Assembly (NCBI GenBank): GCA_038198605.1
Contig: JBBPZS010000125.1
Location: 19,362-83,361, forward strand
Origin: Chthoniobacterales bacterium
Lineage (GTDB): Bacteria > Verrucomicrobiota > Verrucomicrobiia > Chthoniobacterales > UBA10450
Length of the DNA: 64,000 nucleotides
Direction of reading: 5' to 3'
The notes beneath the pieces are model-generated. The model made no database searches. It saw only the letters and a list, made by a program, of their open reading frames with translations, and had not been told where the DNA came from. Positions 209 to 60,820 of this stretch are shown in pieces. How positions within the stretch are numbered: position 1 is the first letter of the stretch; each line of letters starts with the position of its first letter. The position numbers and the translations under genes are program-made.

Positions 209-565
209 ATGTTTAACTTTGAAAAGCTCGAGGTTTGGCAAAAGGCGATTGATTTCGCCGATTTGGTCTACGTAACAACCAAACGGTTTCCCGCCGACGA
301 GCGTTTTGGCCTAACGAACCAAATGCGTCGGGCGGCGGTTTCGATTTCGTCGAATGTCGCGGAAGGTTGTTCGCGCAGCTCAAAGCCGGATTTCGCGCGT
401 TTCGTCGAAATCACCACCGGCTCCGTCTTCGAAGTCGTTTCGCAAGCGTTCATTGGGCTTCGCCAACAGTTTCTCGACGAAGACGCATTTCAGCGCTTGT
501 ACCAAGCTGCCGAAGAACAAAGCAAGATGCTGAGCGGCCTGCGCAAATCCCTTCTTTCTTCCTAG
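209..565 (+). CDS. four-helix-bundle protein, 23S rRNA intervening-sequence protein family
   Basis: 118 aa with family-typical motifs: F..L.VWQKA near the N-terminus, RRAAVSISSNVAEG, and GSVFEV. It is paralogous to 48520-48873 and to the pseudogene at 43282-43931. Confidence 0.85.
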   Translation: MFNFEKLEVWQKAIDFADLVYVTTKRFPADERFGLTNQMRRAAVSISSNVAEGCSRSSKPDFARFVEITTGSVFEVVSQAFIGLRQQFLDEDAFQRLYQAAEEQSKMLSGLRKSLLSS

Positions 566-41273: not shown

Positions 41274-41470
41274 TGGACCAAAGACGCCTAACGATCGCCC
41301 GGAACCGTCGGATCGCGCTCTGGCGTGCGCGATTCATCAAGAGCCTGCGCGCCTGCCCGAATATCCGGGCAGCGTGCAAGGCCGCGAACGTGTCGCCGCA
41401 AACTGTTTACCGCACAAAGCGAGACGACCCCGCTTTCGCGGCGCAGTGGCAGGATGGTAGAGAGGATTGA
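41273..41470 (+). CDS. small HTH protein resembling phage terminase small-subunit N-termini, probably 3'-truncated
   Basis: ACPNIRAACKAANVSPQTVYRTKRDDPAFAAQW. The ORF ends a few codons after the junction with the carbamoyltransferase. Confidence 0.4.
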   Translation: MDQRRLTIARNRRIALWRARFIKSLRACPNIRAACKAANVSPQTVYRTKRDDPAFAAQWQDGRED

Positions 41471-43175
41471 TCTCGCGGTGGACGGTCTGGAGCCGGCCGG
41501 AACCGTCGACGTGGCAGACGGCGGGGAGTTGGGCACGTTTCTCCTCCTTAATCTGGAAGACTTCCATCATGTAGGGGACATCGTCCTCCTGCTCGAACCA
41601 GTCACTGACCGCTTCTCGCAGGATCGAGGGAGCGAAAGGCCGGAAAGACTCGCGGCGCTTGATCTTGGCGTTGAGGATGTCCTTCATATCGGCTCGGCGC
41701 GGATCCCCGAGGATGGACCGGTTGCCCAGAGCGCGTGGGCCCCATTCCATCCGGCCTTGAAACCAGCCCACCACTTTGCCGTCGGCAATCGCGTGCGCGG
41801 TGCGGTGGCAAAGGGTGTGCATGTCGGAGATGTCGGCCAGCTCGCAATTGTCTTCCTTTAACTCATTCCGCCGCGGGTTAAGGACTCTCCAGCAGTCGTC
41901 CTTGGAGAATTGCGGACCGAGATAGGGCGAGAAACAGCCGGCACTGACGGACCCGGCCAGGGTAAGTGCCGGTTTTCCAAGACTGAAACGCGGAGCGCCG
42001 ATGGCCGTCGGTCGGGAGCTGGGAGATGGGAGATCGGAGTTGGAAGTTGGGAGATGCACGTCGCGACTGCGCACGCTGTCGGAAGGGCCCGTGATCGTGC
42101 CGGAAAGTTTGGCCGCCACCATCGCCGCGGCTCCGATAGCACCGCCCGCGTCGCCCGCCGCCGCAGGCAGATACATTTTCTTGAAAGGGGTCTGCAGATA
42201 CACCTTCCCGTTGGCCACTGAGTTCATGGCGCAGCCGCCAGAGAGCGCGAGGTTGGGCGACGGGTGGCGGTCATGGAGGCCGTGCAGGAGAGCGAAAAAC
42301 GCTTCCTCATACATGGCTTGGGCAGAACGGGCCATGTCCTTATGCTTTTGTTCGAGCGGCTCGCCATTTGCGCGGGGAGCACCGAGCAGGGAGCTAAGAG
42401 CAGAGGTGTAAAGCGTGCCGACTTCGGGCGAACAATCGTTCCAACTGTAGGAGACGTTGTCGGTGTGATGCCGGAAGTAGGCCAGATTGAGGCGAAAGGT
42501 GCCGTCGGATTGGATGCGGACGAGCTCGCGCATCTGCTCGAGGTATCTCGGCTCGCCGTAAGGCGCGAGGCCCATAACCTTGTATTCATCACCGTAATGC
42601 GGGAAGCCGATGAACTGGGTGATGGCGGAGTAGAAAATCCCCAGCGAGTGAGGGAAGTAAACGCGCTGGTCGATCTCGATCCGTCCTCCGCTCCCCCACC
42701 CCAGCGCGGTGCTGGCGAAATCGCCAAAGCCGTCGACCGAAAGGCAGGCGGCTTCGTCAAACCCGGAGATAAGGACGGCCGAAGCGAGGTGCGCAAGATG
42801 ATGCTCGACGTGATGGACCTGCGCTTTGAGCTGGATCCCATACGCCTTCTCGAGTGCTTCCGCCGCGGATGAGGCGCTCCGCATGTTCTGGATCTTCTGC
42901 CACATCAGACGCGGGTCGGGCAGATGAGTCACGACGAAGCCGAGCCGGCGCCAGTTGTTCGCGCCGGGTTTGCGATTGATCGCGATGTGATCGACGTCGC
43001 TCAACGACGCGCCAACTTCGGAGAGGCAGTAGTCGATCGCCTGTGTGGGCAGGCCCGCCCAGTGCTTGATCCGCCGGAAGCGCTCCTCTTCGGCCGCGGC
43101 GACGAGGCAGCCATCCTTCATGACACACGCTGCGGAGTCGGCGTGGTAGGCGTTAAGGCCGAGAATCAGGAACAT
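41337..43175 (-). pseudogene. NodU/CmcH-family carbamoyltransferase, 3'-truncated, with an internal repeat-derived insert
   Basis: N-terminus MFLILGLNAYHADSAA ... CHVDGSGRLQTVHREINPLYH, after which homology stops near 41454. The expected NTSFN C-terminal segment is missing, and the ORF reads on into island DNA. Confidence 0.7.
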
Positions 43176-43237
43176 TGGGGAAGGTGGGAAGTGGGAAAGT
43201 GGGAAGGTGAGAAGCCGGAGATCAGAGGTCTGAGATC

Positions 43238-43267
43238 GGAGCACGGAGCGGGGAGCAGGGAGCGCGG
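43238..43267. repeat. G-rich heptamer repeat (GGGGAGC/AGGGAGC), left bracket of the four-helix-bundle pseudogene
   Basis: ggagcacggagcggggagcagggagcgcgg. The complementary C-rich array is at 43959-43994. Confidence 0.7.
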
Positions 43268-43483
43268 AACTGGAGCGCTGGCTAGGGACGGAGGTGGCGC
43301 ATGAAGGCGAGGGTCATGCGGCTCTGCTCTTGGAGTTGGCTTATCAACCCCGCTGTGTCGCAGGCTTGAAAGGCCGCATTTCGCGTGAGCAGAATCAGCA
43401 TGTTGGCAACTTCAAAGACTGAGCGACGGGAGATGTTGAGGAAATTACGAAATTCCACGTCCGAGACGCTTCCAGATCCTTCT

Positions 43484-43738
43484 TTAGCCTGTGAAGTACC
43501 CCCTGCATCGCGTTTTGATATAGCGCTTGCCATAAGTCGTCTTGAGGTATTTCTCCCGGCGGAAAGCGTCCTGCTCGTTTGTGCAAGCTTCGTAATAAAT
43601 GAGGCAGAGTGGCCGTCTTTTAGATGTCGAAACAACTTTTCCTCTGTGGTGCAAATCCGGTCGCTTTCGTAGATCGCGCGTGCATCCGGTATAGAGCAAA
43701 CCGTCCGGTCCGGATCGAAGGACATAAACGTAGATCAC
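43484..43738 (-). CDS. GIY-YIG nuclease family protein (84 aa)
   Basis: IYVYVLRS..G.LYTGCTRDLRKR...H motif; GTG start. Confidence 0.85.
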   Translation of the reverse strand: MIYVYVLRSGPDGLLYTGCTRDLRKRPDLHHRGKVVSTSKRRPLCLIYYEACTNEQDAFRREKYLKTTYGKRYIKTRCRGYFTG

Positions 43739-43754
43739 GCTCCTACTTCACAGG
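43488..43754 (-). mobile_element. 267-bp mini-element with 11-12 bp terminal inverted repeats, encoding only a GIY-YIG nuclease
   Basis: cctgtgaagta at 43488-43498 and tacttcacagg at 43744-43754 are perfect inverted repeats. The length is a multiple of 3, and it is inserted within the conserved NI.EG region of the host gene. Confidence 0.65.
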
Positions 43755-43958
43755 CCAAGATGTTGTTCATGACCGAGATCGCAGCCCGCTGCAGCTGATC
43801 GCGAAATGAGTAGTCTTTCGCTCCAGGTGTAGCAGGACGGAAGCAGCGATAGCACGACTTCACCTGCGCTCGTGCGTCCTGCCAGATCACCAAATCTCGA
43901 AGTCTTGGAATCTAAATCGTTTCTCTTCCATTCTGCCGCCTTCCGTTGGTTTGTCTGA

Positions 43959-43994
43959 CTCCCCGCTCCCCGCTCCCTGCTCCCTGCTCCCTGC
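43959..43994. repeat. C-rich heptamer repeat, right bracket of the four-helix-bundle pseudogene
   Basis: ctccccgctccccgctccctgctccctgctccctgc has complementary polarity to 43238-43267. Confidence 0.7.
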
Positions 43995-44252
43995 TTTACG
44001 CTACCACCGCTGTGCGAAGGCATGCTGCCGCCCTTGATGCAGCCTCGAATTTCGTCGCGGCAGTATCGGTCGGTGAATGGAATGTCGTCGTTCTGCGGGC
44101 GAATCTGTCTCGAGGGGTTACATGCGAACGAGGGCATCGAGAATTAGCGAAGCGGAAATTCCCGTCAACGATATTCTCCCGGGCAGGTAAAAAGTCGCGC
44201 CCCCACCCTCCGGCGTTGACGATGGATCGCAGAATGCTGGATGTTGAAGTCG

Positions 44253-44762
44253 ATGGAATGGTATTGCCTTCACACGGAACCCAGGCAGGAAGCGAAGGTG
44301 GCGCATCTGCTGCGCCGCGACTTGGGACTTGAGGTTTTTGCCCCTCGCATCCGCTTCCGACGGCTGCGAGCGGGACGTCCGCTCTGGACAACAGAGGCGC
44401 TTTTCCCGAGTTATCTTTTTGCCCGCTTCGACTATTTTGAGCGCAGGCGCCAGGTGAACGCTCTCCGCGGCGTCAGCCGAATCGTTCGTTTCGGCGACCG
44501 GCCGGCACCGGTGGAGGGGGCGGTCATGAGGGAGTTGCGTGCCTTGGTGCACGATCATGAAACGGTGGAAGTGCAGGTGGAACCGCAACCCGGCTCCGAG
44601 GTTGTTATCGCCGGGGGTTCGCTGGGAGGCCTCCGGGTGCTGGTGACGCGGCTAATTCCCGCGCGACAACGCGTCGCTATTTTGCTCGAGATGCTCGGGA
44701 GCGCCCGGGAGGTGGAGATCGAGCGAGCCCGCGTCTTCCCGGTGAATCCGCGGCGGCCGTAG
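44253..44762 (+). CDS. NusG-paralog transcription antiterminator (UpxY/RfaH-like)
   Basis: MEWYCLHTEPRQE...FPSYLFARF is an NGN-domain pattern with a C-terminal KOW-like region. It precedes a polysaccharide/exosortase locus. Confidence 0.75.
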   Translation: MEWYCLHTEPRQEAKVAHLLRRDLGLEVFAPRIRFRRLRAGRPLWTTEALFPSYLFARFDYFERRRQVNALRGVSRIVRFGDRPAPVEGAVMRELRALVHDHETVEVQVEPQPGSEVVIAGGSLGGLRVLVTRLIPARQRVAILLEMLGSAREVEIERARVFPVNPRRP

Positions 44763-44885
44763 CGACCAGACCTCATCCTTCCGCGATCAGGCCTGATCTT
44801 GTTGCCATCGGGCCTGTCCACTCTTGCGGCCGACACGGCCGCCGCTACAGCATTTGGCTTCGCCTATGGAGGAACCATTCAGCTG

Positions 44886-45830
44886 TCAGCTTTCCATTGA
44901 CGGCAGTTTGTCCCCCCATTGGAAGATCAGCCACGGCAGCCGGCGCGCGCTCCAGAAGCGCGGGATGAAGACGCGCGGCTGGGCGAGCGAACGGAAAAAC
45001 CAGCCGAGATAATATTTGTCGGCCCAATCCGGGATTCGCACCTGATCGCCGGTAAGGAATCCGATGGCGGCGCCGATGCAATGCACCGCAGGACGATAAT
45101 CGAGCTGCTCGAGGAGATACTGGCCGAGCTTGTCCTGGATTCCGCCGCCGACCGCGATGACGATGTGCTTCGGGTGAGTCTGCCTAACGAGTTCAAGCAA
45201 GGCCTCGTCCTTGACCGGCCGGCCGTATTTCGGGGCAACGTACAAACCGGAGGCCAGAGGCCGGAGGTCGGTGGTCAGCGGTGCACCCGAAGCAGTATTC
45301 CCATCATGCCTGTCCTCTATCCTCTGTTCTCTGTTCTCTGTTCTCTGCTTTCCGATCTCTGTCCTCTGTCCTCTGTCCTCTGGTCGCCCCTGTTTCAGTC
45401 CCAAATCCTCATCGGTAGGGCGAGACTCCGTCGAGCCAAGCCCTCGATCCACGGACGCGACGGCGCGCGTCCCTCCAGCGAGGAATCCTTCCAGCTTCTC
45501 GCGGGAGGTTTCGGTCGCGACAACCCAGATTACCGCGCCGGGTTGCCGGACGGATTCGTGCTCGAGCAGGCGTTTGACGTGTTCGAGCCCGGAAATGCGC
45601 GGGACGCGTTCACCGGTAAAGAATTTCCAGAGCAGGACCATGAAACCGCTGTCGGCGATCGCGATCTCAGCGCTGATCAGCGCGCGCCGGTAATCTTCGT
45701 CCCGGCAAAGATTGATCATGGAAGGCGCGGCCGGCGCGACGAGCAATCCGCCGCGGCGGGTGATCTCGTCGACCGCCTCGCGTGATGTCCCGCCGAAGAA
45801 TTCAATGCCGAGGATACGATGCGTTCGCAT
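44886..45830 (-). CDS. WecB/TagA/CpsF-family glycosyltransferase with a ~77-aa in-frame repeat-encoded insert
   Basis: Family blocks LGIEFFGG...ADSGFMVLL...IAVGGGIQDKLG...IGAAIGFLTGDQVRIPDW. The insert is at 45246-45476. Confidence 0.75.
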   Translation of the reverse strand: MRTHRILGIEFFGGTSREAVDEITRRGGLLVAPAAPSMINLCRDEDYRRALISAEIAIADSGFMVLLWKFFTGERVPRISGLEHVKRLLEHESVRQPGAVIWVVATETSREKLEGFLAGGTRAVASVDRGLGSTESRPTDEDLGLKQGRPEDRGQRTEIGKQRTENREQRIEDRHDGNTASGAPLTTDLRPLASGLYVAPKYGRPVKDEALLELVRQTHPKHIVIAVGGGIQDKLGQYLLEQLDYRPAVHCIGAAIGFLTGDQVRIPDWADKYYLGWFFRSLAQPRVFIPRFWSARRLPWLIFQWGDKLPSMES

Positions 45831-52357: not shown

Positions 52358-52518
52358 AGCGTGGCAAGCGCTTCAACACAGTGAGGCGGCTACGTTGAGC
52401 CTCGCCAGGCCGGCAATCCGCCTGGGACGCGCGGGGCAGGCGCCTCAACACAGTGAGGTCCCCTCGGGGTCTGAGGTCCCCTCGGGGTCAGTCCTCCCTT
52501 TCGACATGAGGTCCCCTC

Positions 52519-52599
52519 GGGGTCAGTCCTCCCTTTCGACATAAACCTGCCATAGTAGGCGCGACCAGATCAGCGCATTTTCAGGAATCGCATTTTTCG
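52519..52599. repeat. ~80-nt repeat family, copy C (tandem partial 5' copies at 52455-52518)
   Basis: ggggtcagtcctccctttcgacataaacctgccatagtaggcgcgaccagatcagcgcattttcaggaatcgcatttttcg. Confidence 0.85.
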
Positions 52600-60540: not shown

Positions 60541-60820
60541 TTGTCGCGCGGGCGCTCGACCTCCCGCGCGCAAGCGCGCAATTGTAGGGCGGGCGCTCCG
60601 CCTGCCTCCCCGCGAGCGCGCATTTGTCGGGCGGGCGCGCCGGCTGCCATCGGGAACCAGAGGACGACACGGCGGTCGTCCCTCCAAGATGGCGGCAAGC
60701 GGAGCGCTTGCCCTACAATTTTGCGTTCGCTCGCTCGAGCCTGGAGGGGCGGGCGCCGTCCCGTCCCCGATAGGAAAAAAGGCGGACGACACGTCGAGCG
60801 TCTCCGCTAATCTTTTCCGC
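60541..60820. repeat. REP mosaic between the M2 peptidase gene and pgi
   Basis: aattgtagggcgggcgctccgcctgcc near 60580, ggcaagcggagcgcttgccctacaat near 60697, and GGACGAC...GTCGTCC hairpins. Confidence 0.8.

Follow-up and report, generated by a model that had tools for sequence, protein, structure and literature searches.

A tiny mobile GIY-YIG nuclease cassette bounded by the arms of a hairpin

A 275-base mobile cassette, made only of an 84-residue GIY-YIG nuclease gene between two inverted repeats, has inserted into a small four-helix-bundle (4HB) gene within the 64-kb stretch of DNA analysed here (the window). This was not a local oddity. Of 162 related GIY-YIG genes from more than 15 phyla, 149 carried the same repeat (consensus CCCTGTGAAATA…TATTTCACAGGG), and 98 sat in 4HB genes, always co-oriented and at the same motif. 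Other copies sat in PD-(D/E)XK (GxxExxY) genes or toxin–antitoxin genes, or next to mutM.

The original prediction described a minimal 267-bp element, an 84-aa GIY-YIG ORF between perfect inverted repeats of 11-12 bp, which interrupted a 4HB gene in frame within its conserved NI.EG segment and without target-site duplication; this observation was confirmed, although its stated length required correction. The sequence GCCTGTGAAGTA occurred exactly twice in the window, at 43487-43498 (+) and 43744-43755 (-), where a given 12-mer is expected about 0.004 times per strand in 64 kb. The repeat extended to 15 nt with one G·T (43484-43498 / 43744-43758). Compared with uninterrupted relatives (locus L083: AACAACATC GCC GAAGGA; L numbers denote individual loci), the inserted stretch was 43483-43758, that is, 276 nt replacing GCC, a net gain of 273 nt. 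The unit measured from repeat end to repeat end was 275 nt rather than 267. The features of the locus were as follows.

43484..43758 (-): the mobile cassette, repeat end to repeat end (275 nt), reading 5'-TTGGCCTGTGAAGTA ... TACTTCACAGGCTAA-3' on the gene strand.
43744..43758 (-): the 5' arm on the gene strand, TTGGCCTGTGAAGTA, with the perfect 12-bp core at 43744-43755.
43484..43498 (-): the 3' arm on the gene strand, TACTTCACAGGCTAA, which encodes the last residues (YFTG) and the stop of the nuclease.
43484..43738 (-): the GIY-YIG nuclease ORF, 84 aa, GTG start, single domain.
43759..43893 (-): a donor-type N-terminal 4HB fragment covering helices 1-2, (L/M)VIWQDARAQV...SVMNNI; its ORF runs on into the arm and stops at TGA 43735-43737.
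43887..43931 (-): a remnant of the 5' end of the resident 4HB gene, MEEKRFRFQDFEIW followed by a stop.
43282..43482 (-): the resident C-terminal 4HB half covering helices 3-4, EGSGSVSDVEFRNFLN...AFMRHLRP followed by a stop, with no start codon of its own at the junction.
43238..43273 (no strand assigned): one arm of an outer imperfect inverted repeat of heptamer-like units, bracketing the whole 4HB gene cassette.
43959..43995 (no strand assigned): the partner arm of the outer repeat, (CTCCCTG)n.

The nuclease ORF matched Pfam GIY-YIG (PF01541) with 49.1 bits against a cut-off of 22.6 (E 7e-13), covering profile positions 1-76 of 78. It retained every residue that was at least 90% conserved in 147 relatives; Y3/Y5, Y16-G18, R26, H30 and E50 were invariant or nearly invariant in the family and present in the window's protein. 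An AF2 model (pLDDT 89) matched 1zg2, Slx1 and I-TevI, the nearest folds being UPF0213 BH0048 and Slx1, while the I-TevI catalytic domain was only a distant fold match (E about 0.3). The best PDB relatives were UPF0213 proteins at E 0.002-0.007, and no NCBIfam model named the nuclease. The dN/dS of the nuclease was about 0.05, indicating strong purifying selection. Exact-sequence look-ups of the nuclease and of the annotated C-terminal half, P0121, found neither on record. The GTG start overlapped the TGA that ends the upstream host fragment (GTGA at 43735-43738), and the last four codons and the stop lay in the genomic-left arm. In other subfamilies the arm lay after the stop, so the arm is a nucleotide-level feature and not a coding constraint.

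The flanks encoded a 23S_rRNA_IVP / TIGR02436 four-helix-bundle protein, split after NNI (NNI|(A)EG). When the halves were joined, PF05635 was matched with 78.1 bits (cut-off 33.8, E 7e-22) and TIGR02436 with 73.2 bits (cut-off 24). An uninterrupted relative was modelled as four helices, with NNIAEG at the end of helix 2, just before the helix 2-3 loop. The two host halves were in the same frame in the window, as originally claimed, but this and the length of '89 codons' were incidental, since host frames agreed in only 9 of 29 loci.

The interpretation offered with the original prediction, i.e., a tiny homing- or transposon-like unit whose only cargo is a stand-alone GIY-YIG domain, bounded by terminal inverted repeats and targeting the NI.EG segment of 4HB genes, was supported. 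It had been conceded in advance that the idea would fall if no other repeat-bounded copies existed or if GIY-YIG genes elsewhere lacked terminal repeats; instead, an inverted repeat of at least 10/11 bp bracketed 149 of 162 relatives, against 2 of 162 in a shuffled control. The core stem was 98.4% paired in 57 family members and 10 of its 12 base pairs showed double compensatory changes, which was reached in 0 of 500 shuffles. The arm alignment was built from repeats found by a complementarity search, which inflates the percentage paired but not the variety of pair types. The suggested link between the GIY-YIG and 4HB families, as small families often multi-copy in the same genomes, was real, but it is a parasite-host relation in which the nuclease cassette lives inside the 4HB genes.

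Mobility was shown by three results. First, similarity between copies in unrelated contexts stopped at the repeat ends; HSPs spanned only the repeat-bounded 272-277 nt (for example, L112/L122 from -21 to +0 and L121/L131 from -16 to +1). Second, near-identical cassettes lay in diverged hosts. The cassettes of L090 and L111 were 93% identical at the nucleotide level, while their host halves were 67% and 64% identical; L128 and L129 had identical cassettes (100%) but differed in the C-terminal half only (81%). In 43 of 153 pairs the cassette was more similar than both flanks, while the reverse held in one pair. Third, a syntenic empty site was identified in Salegentibacter. S. salarius (L066) was filled, while the syntenic loci of S. 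mishustinae and sp. BDJ18 (L165-L168) were empty, with nearly identical 4HB flanks; seven nt (TTCTGAA) were replaced by 297 nt, and nothing was duplicated. The more distant S. lacus (L070) was filled at the same junction.

The 4HB halves broke at about HMM position 55|56, always on the + strand, and the left register was fixed in 35 of 48 loci. However, junctions varied by 1-3 nt between sublineages, and so the target cut is not defined. Uninterrupted 4HB genes with canonical AAY ATH GCN GAR GGN sites sat close to occupied ones; invasion is therefore far from saturating.

The host gene in the window was a mosaic, with about 135 nt of donor 4HB sequence having come in with the cassette. The N-terminal fragment (HMM positions 7-54) was 89% identical at the nucleotide level to L081 and unrelated to L083; together with the cassette it was 89-94% identical to L081, which belongs to another 4HB subfamily. 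Conversely, the C-terminal half was 72% identical to L083 at the nucleotide level and did not match L081; it was 100% identical to P0121 and 60-68% identical to the uninterrupted P0122-P0125. The 5' remnant matched the N-terminus of the P0125/P0122 subfamily (MIEKQFRFQDFEIWKRA), the same subfamily as the C-terminal half, and was put out of frame by an 8-nt duplication (TGATCTGG) at the junction with the donor tract. In L066, by contrast, the flanks matched the empty allele up to the junction and co-conversion was at most about 4 nt.

ORF-less hairpins with the same arms were found in many related loci, mostly outside 4HB genes and often clustered. Such mini-hairpins abutted the right arm of a full cassette in L085, L013/L163/L142 and L040. 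The window held one cassette and no ORF-less hairpins; as whole genomes were not scanned, the presence of gene-less copies alongside this particular cassette is left undecided.

These results were best explained, with about even confidence, by a widespread family of 275-300 bp selfish mobile cassettes, of which the window holds an autonomous copy. Each is one small GIY-YIG gene in the 'loop' of a conserved hairpin, formed by a 12-bp covarying stem plus 3-4 semi-conserved outer bases. The analysis itself demonstrates that the cassette is a discrete unit bounded by the repeats, that it has moved recently, that it repeatedly occupies one site (the NI(A/S)EG-coding end of helix 2 of 4HB genes) in the orientation of the host gene, that it replaces 3-7 nt of target without duplication, and that it can bring donor flank with it; the mechanism, on the other hand, is inferred by analogy with the Ssn nucleases and the Slx1-like fold. 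In this view, the enzyme would recognise the stem formed by its two arms in single-stranded DNA and cut at its foot, after which host repair or recombination would copy the cassette into cognate sites of paralogous or incoming 4HB genes. This would be homing-like and would explain the co-converted donor flank. The left arm would supply an in-frame stop for the truncated host fragment, with the nuclease start following within 0-26 nt (here the overlap GTGA), so that the nuclease is probably translated by coupling to the host gene. In the window, the host 4HB gene is left as a disrupted mosaic. Both the DNA and RNA folds of the window's cassette closed with the terminal stem. No biochemical data exist for this subfamily; whether the substrate is ssDNA, dsDNA or RNA is unknown, and cleavage of these or of the empty target (…CCATCTAATATTTCTGAAGGAGCT…) was not assayed. 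A comparison of wobble pairs, intended to separate a strand-specific RNA or ssDNA stem from duplex repeats, was not significant (G·T 9 vs A·C 3 in the core; 46 vs 51 in the outer bases). Since a GIY-YIG nuclease cannot rejoin DNA, every joining step rests on unidentified host functions.

The closest published system is the Ssn family of site-specific, hairpin-guided ssDNA nucleases with NTS/SRM repeats (Chenal et al., Nat Commun 2025; PMC11893778). Ssn proteins are likewise single-domain GIY-YIG proteins of under 100 aa without an additional DNA-binding domain; they bind a hairpin flanking their own gene and cut ssDNA beside it, hairpin copies without the gene occur elsewhere in the genome, and the authors themselves note an IS-like architecture. 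The enzyme also tolerates a stem made of two separate strands and extensions in the loop, the geometry that a gene-in-loop cassette would need. Membership of the Ssn family (CDD cd10448) was not assessed, neither by CDD assignment nor by comparison with N. meningitidis SsnA (CAX49033.1), and the Ssn criterion of cutting ssDNA next to the hairpin, but neither dsDNA nor RNA, was not assayed. Each side of the present cassette carries only half of one hairpin, the gene being the loop; in Ssn there is a complete hairpin on each side. The arm (CCCTGTGAAATA) has no CGTC tag, and the published Ssn-related motif (HGTCWY..YYVSBRH..WNVSBRG..RNCYNB) was found within 300 nt of the cassette in 0 of 73 loci, and not at the window locus. 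Mobility, a defined intragenic target and empty sites are documented here; for Ssn, mobility was only hypothesised. A tblastn search of 72,556 plasmids found one weak hit.

A tentative alternative is a true minimal transposon, in which the GIY-YIG protein acts as sole 'transposase' on the hairpin-forming ends and moves the cassette, and ORF-less hairpins in trans, by an ssDNA cut/copy-and-paste route without need of flanking homology; the 4HB preference would then reflect recognition of target sequence or structure, not homing. The dispersed and clustered ORF-less hairpins in intergenic places without 4HB homology, the mini-hairpins abutting full cassettes, the occurrence of cassettes in at least six unrelated contexts with sharp repeat-defined boundaries, the lack of target duplication (as in ssDNA transposons) and the near absence of co-conversion in L066 are consistent with this. 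The analogy would be with IS200/IS605 and REPIN/RAYT, where one small nuclease gene is flanked by its cognate palindromic repeats, ORF-less repeats are dispersed and clustered, and there is no target duplication. However, the enzyme class is entirely different: HUH Y1 transposases form a covalent intermediate, whereas GIY-YIG enzymes hydrolyse DNA and form none for rejoining, and IS200/IS605 ends are subterminal hairpins, not one long-range stem. No IS family is known to use a GIY-YIG enzyme, and the cassette encodes no transposase of a recognised class (DDE, HUH, serine or tyrosine recombinase), its only ORF being the GIY-YIG domain. Pure transposition does not predict the 135 nt of imported donor flank, and the junctions are imprecise. 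The boldest reading, also tentative, is that the family is the first bacterial transposon class driven by a GIY-YIG nuclease alone, an autonomous element of approximately 275 bp whose ends pair in single-stranded DNA to form the recognition hairpin and which also mobilises a REP-like population of ORF-less hairpins. It would be among the smallest autonomous mobile elements known, and the missing 'autonomous partner' showing that Ssn-type nuclease/hairpin pairs began as, and in many phyla still are, mobile DNA.

It is more doubtful that the cassette is a classical free-standing homing endonuclease gene cleaving the double-stranded empty NIAEG site, with the inverted repeat playing no part in mobility but acting in RNA, as a stem that insulates or processes the nuclease mRNA (by RNase III, as in rRNA intervening sequences) or tunes coupled translation. 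The recurrent occupation of a highly conserved coding motif in a multi-copy gene family, the empty and filled alleles, the co-conversion footprints, the constant orientation, the host stop codon provided by the left arm just before the nuclease start, and the RNA fold all agree with this. GIY-YIG ORFs and 23S_rRNA_IVP ORFs also both occur in non-intron insertions of CPR rRNA genes (10.1101/2024.02.27.582315). The free-standing GIY-YIG homing endonuclease genes (Seg/Mob of T-even phages; the I-TevI catalytic domain) are similarly selfish genes at conserved coding sites, which spread to cognate sites, co-convert donor flank and can split the host gene; in phage Aeh1, mobE splits nrdA. But those enzymes carry a long DNA-binding region and have no terminal inverted repeats, while the catalytic domain here fills the whole 84 aa and its nearest folds are structure-selective nucleases. 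They are mostly in phages, and the present family is almost absent from IMG/VR (one hit, a viral contig). Nor does this reading explain the ORF-less hairpins outside 4HB genes or the copies in unrelated contexts whose homology ends at the arms.

A domesticated and no longer mobile Ssn-like host system, a hairpin-specific ssDNA nuclease policing transforming or conjugating DNA and located in 4HB genes by historical accident, is very unlikely. The Ssn precedent in Neisseria, the purifying selection and the single copy in the window could be read in this way, but near-identical cassettes lay in diverged hosts, the empty and filled syntenic alleles were not congruent with host relatedness, and several copies occurred per contig or genome (L008/L015, L036, L043, L073, L056/L057).

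Least likely is an RNA- or DNA-level intervening sequence removed precisely at the foot of the stem, such that an intact 4HB protein is still made. Both host halves were intact ORFs in nearly all loci (although the C-terminal half usually had no start codon), and their dN/dS was 0.09-0.14 between two Salegentibacter species, which might suggest that the split gene is still functional. That inference was rejected because the low dN/dS is explained by recency: a 98%-identical uninterrupted orthologue exists, and the flanks of the filled allele are almost identical to it. No common excision rule restored the frame. The C-terminal frame relative to the nuclease was distributed 12/17/11 and the junction remainder 17/18/13 of 48; hand-derived rules worked for some sublineages and failed for others (for example, L050 and L157). 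The conserved Glu of NIAEG was often lost or changed to K or Q at the junction. An Rfam search of the window at gathering thresholds, and of 10 loci at E≤1, returned nothing but tRNAs, and so no intron or ribozyme; the ORF has its own start and stop, and its frame relative to the host is random, contrary to expectation for a self-splicing intron or intein. Translational bypass or stop-codon read-through was dropped as speculation, since no consistent matching take-off and landing codons or frame were found.

The cassette provides a concrete, testable case of a mobile element reduced to one 84-residue nuclease and two 15-nt arms, and its hosts include cultivable Bacteroidota (Salegentibacter, Marinilabilia, Carboxylicivirga, Algoriphagus), the Salegentibacter allele pair being a natural system for studying mobilisation directly. 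It links three puzzles: why tiny stand-alone GIY-YIG genes and four-helix-bundle '23S rRNA IVS' genes are multi-copy in the same genomes; where REP-like hairpin families other than the GTAG and CGTC types come from; and whether Ssn-type nuclease/hairpin pairs are mobile. If the enzyme reads a programmable stem as Ssn does, the family is a large reservoir of new ssDNA-cutting specificities. For annotation, split 4HB, PD-(D/E)XK and antitoxin genes around such cassettes should be recognised as insertion products.

Bacterial rRNA intervening sequences that carry 23S_rRNA_IVP ORFs, and the non-intron GIY-YIG insertions in CPR rRNA genes, also comprise a single small ORF bounded by inverted repeats that can pair, and involve the same two protein families. 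The present cassette is in a protein-coding gene, not in rRNA, and no evidence was obtained for RNase III processing. The 4HB genes in the window were themselves bracketed by imperfect inverted repeats; around the interrupted gene these comprised tandem heptamers, forming repeats of 25-34 nt that were 81-92% complementary.

On the minus strand, reading 5' to 3', the region comprised a split four-helix-bundle (4HB) gene and an intervening ORF, together with the inverted repeat that bounds the latter:

43931-43887, minus strand: a short remnant ORF, MEEKRFRFQDFEIW, ending in a stop codon
43893-43759, minus strand: an N-terminal 4HB fragment, (L/M)VIWQDARAQV…SVMNNI, whose reading frame runs on into the repeat (NNI-LACEVGA-TGA)
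43738-43484, minus strand: an 84-aa ORF, whose GTG start overlaps that TGA (GTGA)
43482-43282, minus strand: the C-terminal 4HB half, EGSGSVSDVEF…AFMRHLRP, ending in a stop codon
43484-43498 / 43744-43758: the inverted repeat, 15 nt long with one G·T

The 84-aa ORF is a GIY-YIG domain (PF01541, E 7e-13), while the joined host halves are a 23S_rRNA_IVP / TIGR02436 protein. The 12-mer GCCTGTGAAGTA occurred exactly twice in 64 kb, once on each strand and 245 nt apart; a given 12-mer is expected about 0.004 times per strand over this length, and so the repeat is not due to chance. There was no target-site duplication. Uninterrupted relatives read AACAACATC-GCC-GAAGGATCTGG (as in L083, one of the loci retrieved for comparison), where the window reads AACAACATC, 276 nt and then GAAGGATCTGG; therefore, GCC was replaced and the net gain is 273 nt. 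The element described in the original prediction was confirmed, and only its size, put at 267 bp, needed correction. The host reading frame (43282-43734, minus strand) stays open through the whole nuclease gene apart from the single TGA at 43735-43737, and a public annotation (P0121) calls an 83-aa ORF that starts at an ATG inside the nuclease gene and runs into the 4HB C-half; this is probably chance in GC-rich DNA, and was not seen in relatives.

A word-indexed protein search gave 1,932 relatives, most of them exactly 84 aa long and 70–85% identical, from Verrucomicrobiota, Acidobacteriota and others, while an exhaustive HMMER search found 515 clusters (at 50% identity) with E≤1e-10. Eighty genomic and 80 metagenomic loci were retrieved. 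The genomic loci were sampled at one genome per species and seeded with peptide patterns, so that copy numbers per genome were not obtained; most loci came from MAGs or metagenomes, where binning and assembly errors are possible. The loci came from Verrucomicrobiota, Acidobacteriota, Bacteroidota, Ignavibacteriota, Chloroflexota, Nitrospirota, several CPR groups, Omnitrophota, KSB1, Calditrichota, Desulfobacterota, Zetaproteobacteria and others, although some MAG assignments may be wrong; the closest relatives of the window were verrucomicrobial (Chthoniobacterales-like). The original prediction was to fail if no other copies bounded by these repeats existed, but of 162 evaluable gene copies, 149 were bracketed by an inverted repeat of at least 10/11 bp, placed just upstream of the start and at or just after the stop; a control in which the left region was shuffled gave 2 of 162. 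Its interpretation of the element as a tiny homing- or transposon-like unit was supported.

The consensus of the repeat was (A/G)CCCTGTGAAATA … TATTTCACAGGG(T/C), and in the verrucomicrobial subfamily of the window (C)TYGGCCYGTGAAATA … TATTTCACRGGCTRA(A). In a register-fixed alignment of 57 distinct arm pairs, the 12-bp core was 98.4% paired; ten of 12 pairs showed changes on both sides, with up to four pair types at positions 1, 4 and 8, and no shuffle of 500, nor any slid register, came close. The arms had been found by a complementarity search, which biases the percentage paired but not the diversity of compensatory pair types. Identity is free to change as long as complementarity is kept, while other positions (CC, GT, AATA) stay fixed; this pattern fits a structure-plus-sequence recognition element better than a duplex site read purely by sequence. 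Both the DNA and RNA folds of the window's cassette closed with this stem, although the overall energy z-scores (-1.0 and -1.6) were unremarkable, as expected for a coding interior.

An HMM built from 4HB proteins and iterated on the flanks found 4HB half-genes directly abutting 98 of the 162 copies. They were always on the same strand as the nuclease, with no minus-strand hit in 160 loci, and always broken at about HMM position 55/56, in the N-I-A/E-G motif (the slash marks the break). An AF2 model of an uninterrupted relative (pLDDT 95.6) placed this motif at the C-terminal end of helix 2, just before the helix 2-3 loop. The left junction was regular; in 35 of 48 distinct junctions the host frame read the arm as CCT GTG AAA TAA, such that the arm supplies the stop for the truncated host fragment, and the nuclease start followed 0–26 nt later. 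The right junction varied by 1–3 nt, and the conserved Glu codon was often lost or turned into K or Q.

Other contexts recurred among the loci and were confirmed with Pfam. Cassettes were found inside PD-(D/E)XK 'GxxExxY' genes (PF13366), right after the motif Tyr (L033, L035, L038); in DUF5615; right after an FGE-sulfatase gene (L018, L022); and immediately upstream of mutM (L020, L037). They also recurred at the junction between a MazE-like antitoxin and a PIN toxin (L007, L008, L091, L098, L107, L117, L122, L124), 4–5 codons before the end of the antitoxin gene and directly upstream of the overlapping toxin start, which is left intact; the effect on toxin-antitoxin balance is not known. Apart from mutM and the FGE-sulfatase gene, all these hosts are small genes, from families that are typically multi-copy.

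Several comparisons showed that the cassette moves. Between copies in unrelated contexts, similarity was confined to the repeat-bounded unit; L112 and L122 shared a 277-nt HSP from -21 of the start to the stop, and L121 and L131 shared 272 nt. Cassettes were often much more alike than their hosts: 93% against 67% and 64% for L090 and L111, 87% against 70% and 60% for L136 and L137, and 100% against 95% and 81% for L128 and L129. In 43 of 153 pairs the cassette exceeded both flanks by more than 5 points, while the reverse held in 1 pair.

A natural empty site was identified for the Salegentibacter salarius copy (L066). Its reconstituted host had uninterrupted orthologues at 96–98% amino acid identity in S. 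mishustinae and Salegentibacter sp. BDJ18, which lie in the same place, between two UDP-glucose dehydrogenase genes. The empty allele reads CCATCTAATAT, TTCTGAA, GGAGCTGCTAGG; the filled allele reads CCATCTAATAT, then 297 nt beginning AGCTTGCCCTGTGTAATA and ending TATTACACAGGGTAAAG, then GGAGCTGCTAGG. The 4HB flanks of the filled and empty alleles were almost identical, while the more distant S. lacus (about 18% divergent) was filled at the same junction. Presence and absence therefore do not follow host relatedness, and at least two events occurred. An intervening sequence that is removed to restore the host protein is unlikely, since no common rule restored the frame; the low dN/dS of the host halves, which might be read as continued function, is explained by the recency of insertion.

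The window's own host gene is a mosaic. Its 5' remnant (MEEKRFRFQDFEIW) and its C-half belong to the subfamily of the uninterrupted 4HB proteins P0122 and P0125 (FRFQDFEIW…NNIAEGSGSVSDVEF…AFMRHLRP), whereas the stretch from IWQDA to NNI, together with the cassette, is 89% and 94% identical to L081, which belongs to another subfamily (…NNIAEGFERKTPKDF). An 8-nt duplication marks the left joint and shifts the frame. Therefore, a tract of about 410 nt, made of 135 nt of donor host sequence plus the cassette, was copied into a resident 4HB gene; this is a co-conversion footprint, and it leaves the host gene disrupted. L081 (315-988) and L082 (193-866), from two assemblies, showed a related rearrangement: a 4HB N-half, then nuclease codons 1–58, then a complete uninterrupted 4HB gene, joined at the 11-nt microhomology GAGCAGGACGC that is shared by the nuclease (NEQDA) and the 4HB gene (WQDA). 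This looks like template switching during copying.

Short hairpins with the same arms but without an ORF, and with loops of 8–75 nt, occurred in many loci, mostly outside 4HB genes. They were often clustered (L126, 1128-1376; L112, 1239-1347 and 2029-2137; L029; L057; L061) and sometimes directly abutted the right arm of a full cassette (L085, L013/L163/L142, L040); none occurred in this 64-kb window. The tandem clusters had the arm consensus cTTG-GCCYGTGAAGT-(9-12 nt)-ACTTCACRGGC-CGAGg; they resemble BIME-like REP clusters, and carry neither the GTAG nor the CGTC tag of the two known REP superfamilies. The arms therefore also exist as a REP- or MITE-like repeat population. These dispersed hairpins, and the copies in unrelated contexts, argue for a homology-independent ssDNA transposition, while the enzyme's inability to rejoin DNA and the co-converted flank argue against it.

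The window's protein kept every residue that is at least 90% conserved in 147 relatives, including the distinctive REKYLKTTYGKRY tail, and dN/dS was about 0.05. The AF2 model (pLDDT 89) was closest to the UPF0213 protein BH0048, and then to Slx1, a nuclease that acts on branched DNA; it was only weakly similar to the I-TevI catalytic domain, and there is no room for a separate DNA-binding domain. The family was essentially absent from the viral contigs and plasmids searched. The cassette shows the population-genetic hallmarks of a homing endonuclease gene, but it lacks a DNA-binding module and has terminal repeats; it has the terminal repeats of an IS, but no target duplication and no recognised transposase.

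Membership in the GIY-YIG superfamily is established. The closest published system is the Ssn family (PMC11893778), which are single-domain GIY-YIG proteins of about 94 aa whose genes are flanked by a hairpin repeat. They bind that hairpin and cut ssDNA just upstream of it; they are inactive on dsDNA and RNA, and still cut when the stem is made from two separate strands or carries extensions in the loop. The authors of that study noted the IS-like architecture and hypothesised a mobile origin. The present cassette looks like that logic taken to its minimum, in that the gene is the loop. Membership in Ssn (cd10448) was not assessed here, and the published SRM motif is absent (0 of 73 loci); the cassette is regarded as working like Ssn, rather than as belonging to it. 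Full-text searches of the literature found no description of GIY-YIG cassettes inside 4HB genes, and none of a GIY-YIG/REP pairing other than Ssn.

The interpretation favoured is a nuclease that recognises its paired arms in single-stranded DNA and cuts at the foot of the stem, after which host repair or recombination would copy the cassette into cognate sites; the imported donor flank supports this homing-like copying. The comparisons establish a discrete, recently mobile and site-preferring cassette, and every mechanistic step beyond this is inference. Sequence data do not separate this view from the ssDNA transposition described above, or from a classical duplex homing endonuclease whose repeat acts only at the RNA level, and a test for asymmetry between G·T and A·C was not significant. 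There is a reasonable chance, though well short of even, that the cassette is a new class of minimal, GIY-YIG-driven transposon.

The interrupted 4HB gene sits in a polysaccharide-type neighbourhood (41337-45830), with a carbamoyltransferase, a NusG paralogue and a WecG/TagA glycosyltransferase; the Salegentibacter target (empty alleles L165-L168) also lies between two UDP-glucose dehydrogenase genes. 4HB cassettes seem to favour exopolysaccharide loci. Both 4HB genes of the window are intergenic cassettes, each bracketed by an imperfect inverted repeat built from short tandem units of about 7 nt. For the gene at 209-564 (plus strand), the repeat lies at 159-191 / 581-610 and is GTTGAGA-type; for the interrupted gene it lies at 43238-43273 / 43959-43995 and is GGGAGC/CTCCCTG-type. 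The GIY-YIG cassette is therefore nested inside another repeat-bounded cassette, and L081 showed similar TTCCCAC-type repeats after its 4HB gene. Heptamer or octamer tandem arrays of the same style, at 42014-42056 (GGGAGAT x6), 45310-45382 (CTGTCCT x10) and 43178-43214 (GGGAAGGT x5), lie inside long ORFs called for a carbamoyltransferase (in the linker between its N and C domains) and for a WecG-family glycosyltransferase, and give low-complexity peptide stretches such as DRGQRTEIGKQRTENREQRIEDR; they may be scars or insertion sites of cassettes, or the ORFs may be artificially fused. Two further tandem repeats were unrelated to the cassette, at 52454-52542 and 60541-60648: a 35-nt unit x2 (100% match) overlapping an 18-nt periodicity, and a 42-nt GC-rich unit x2.6.
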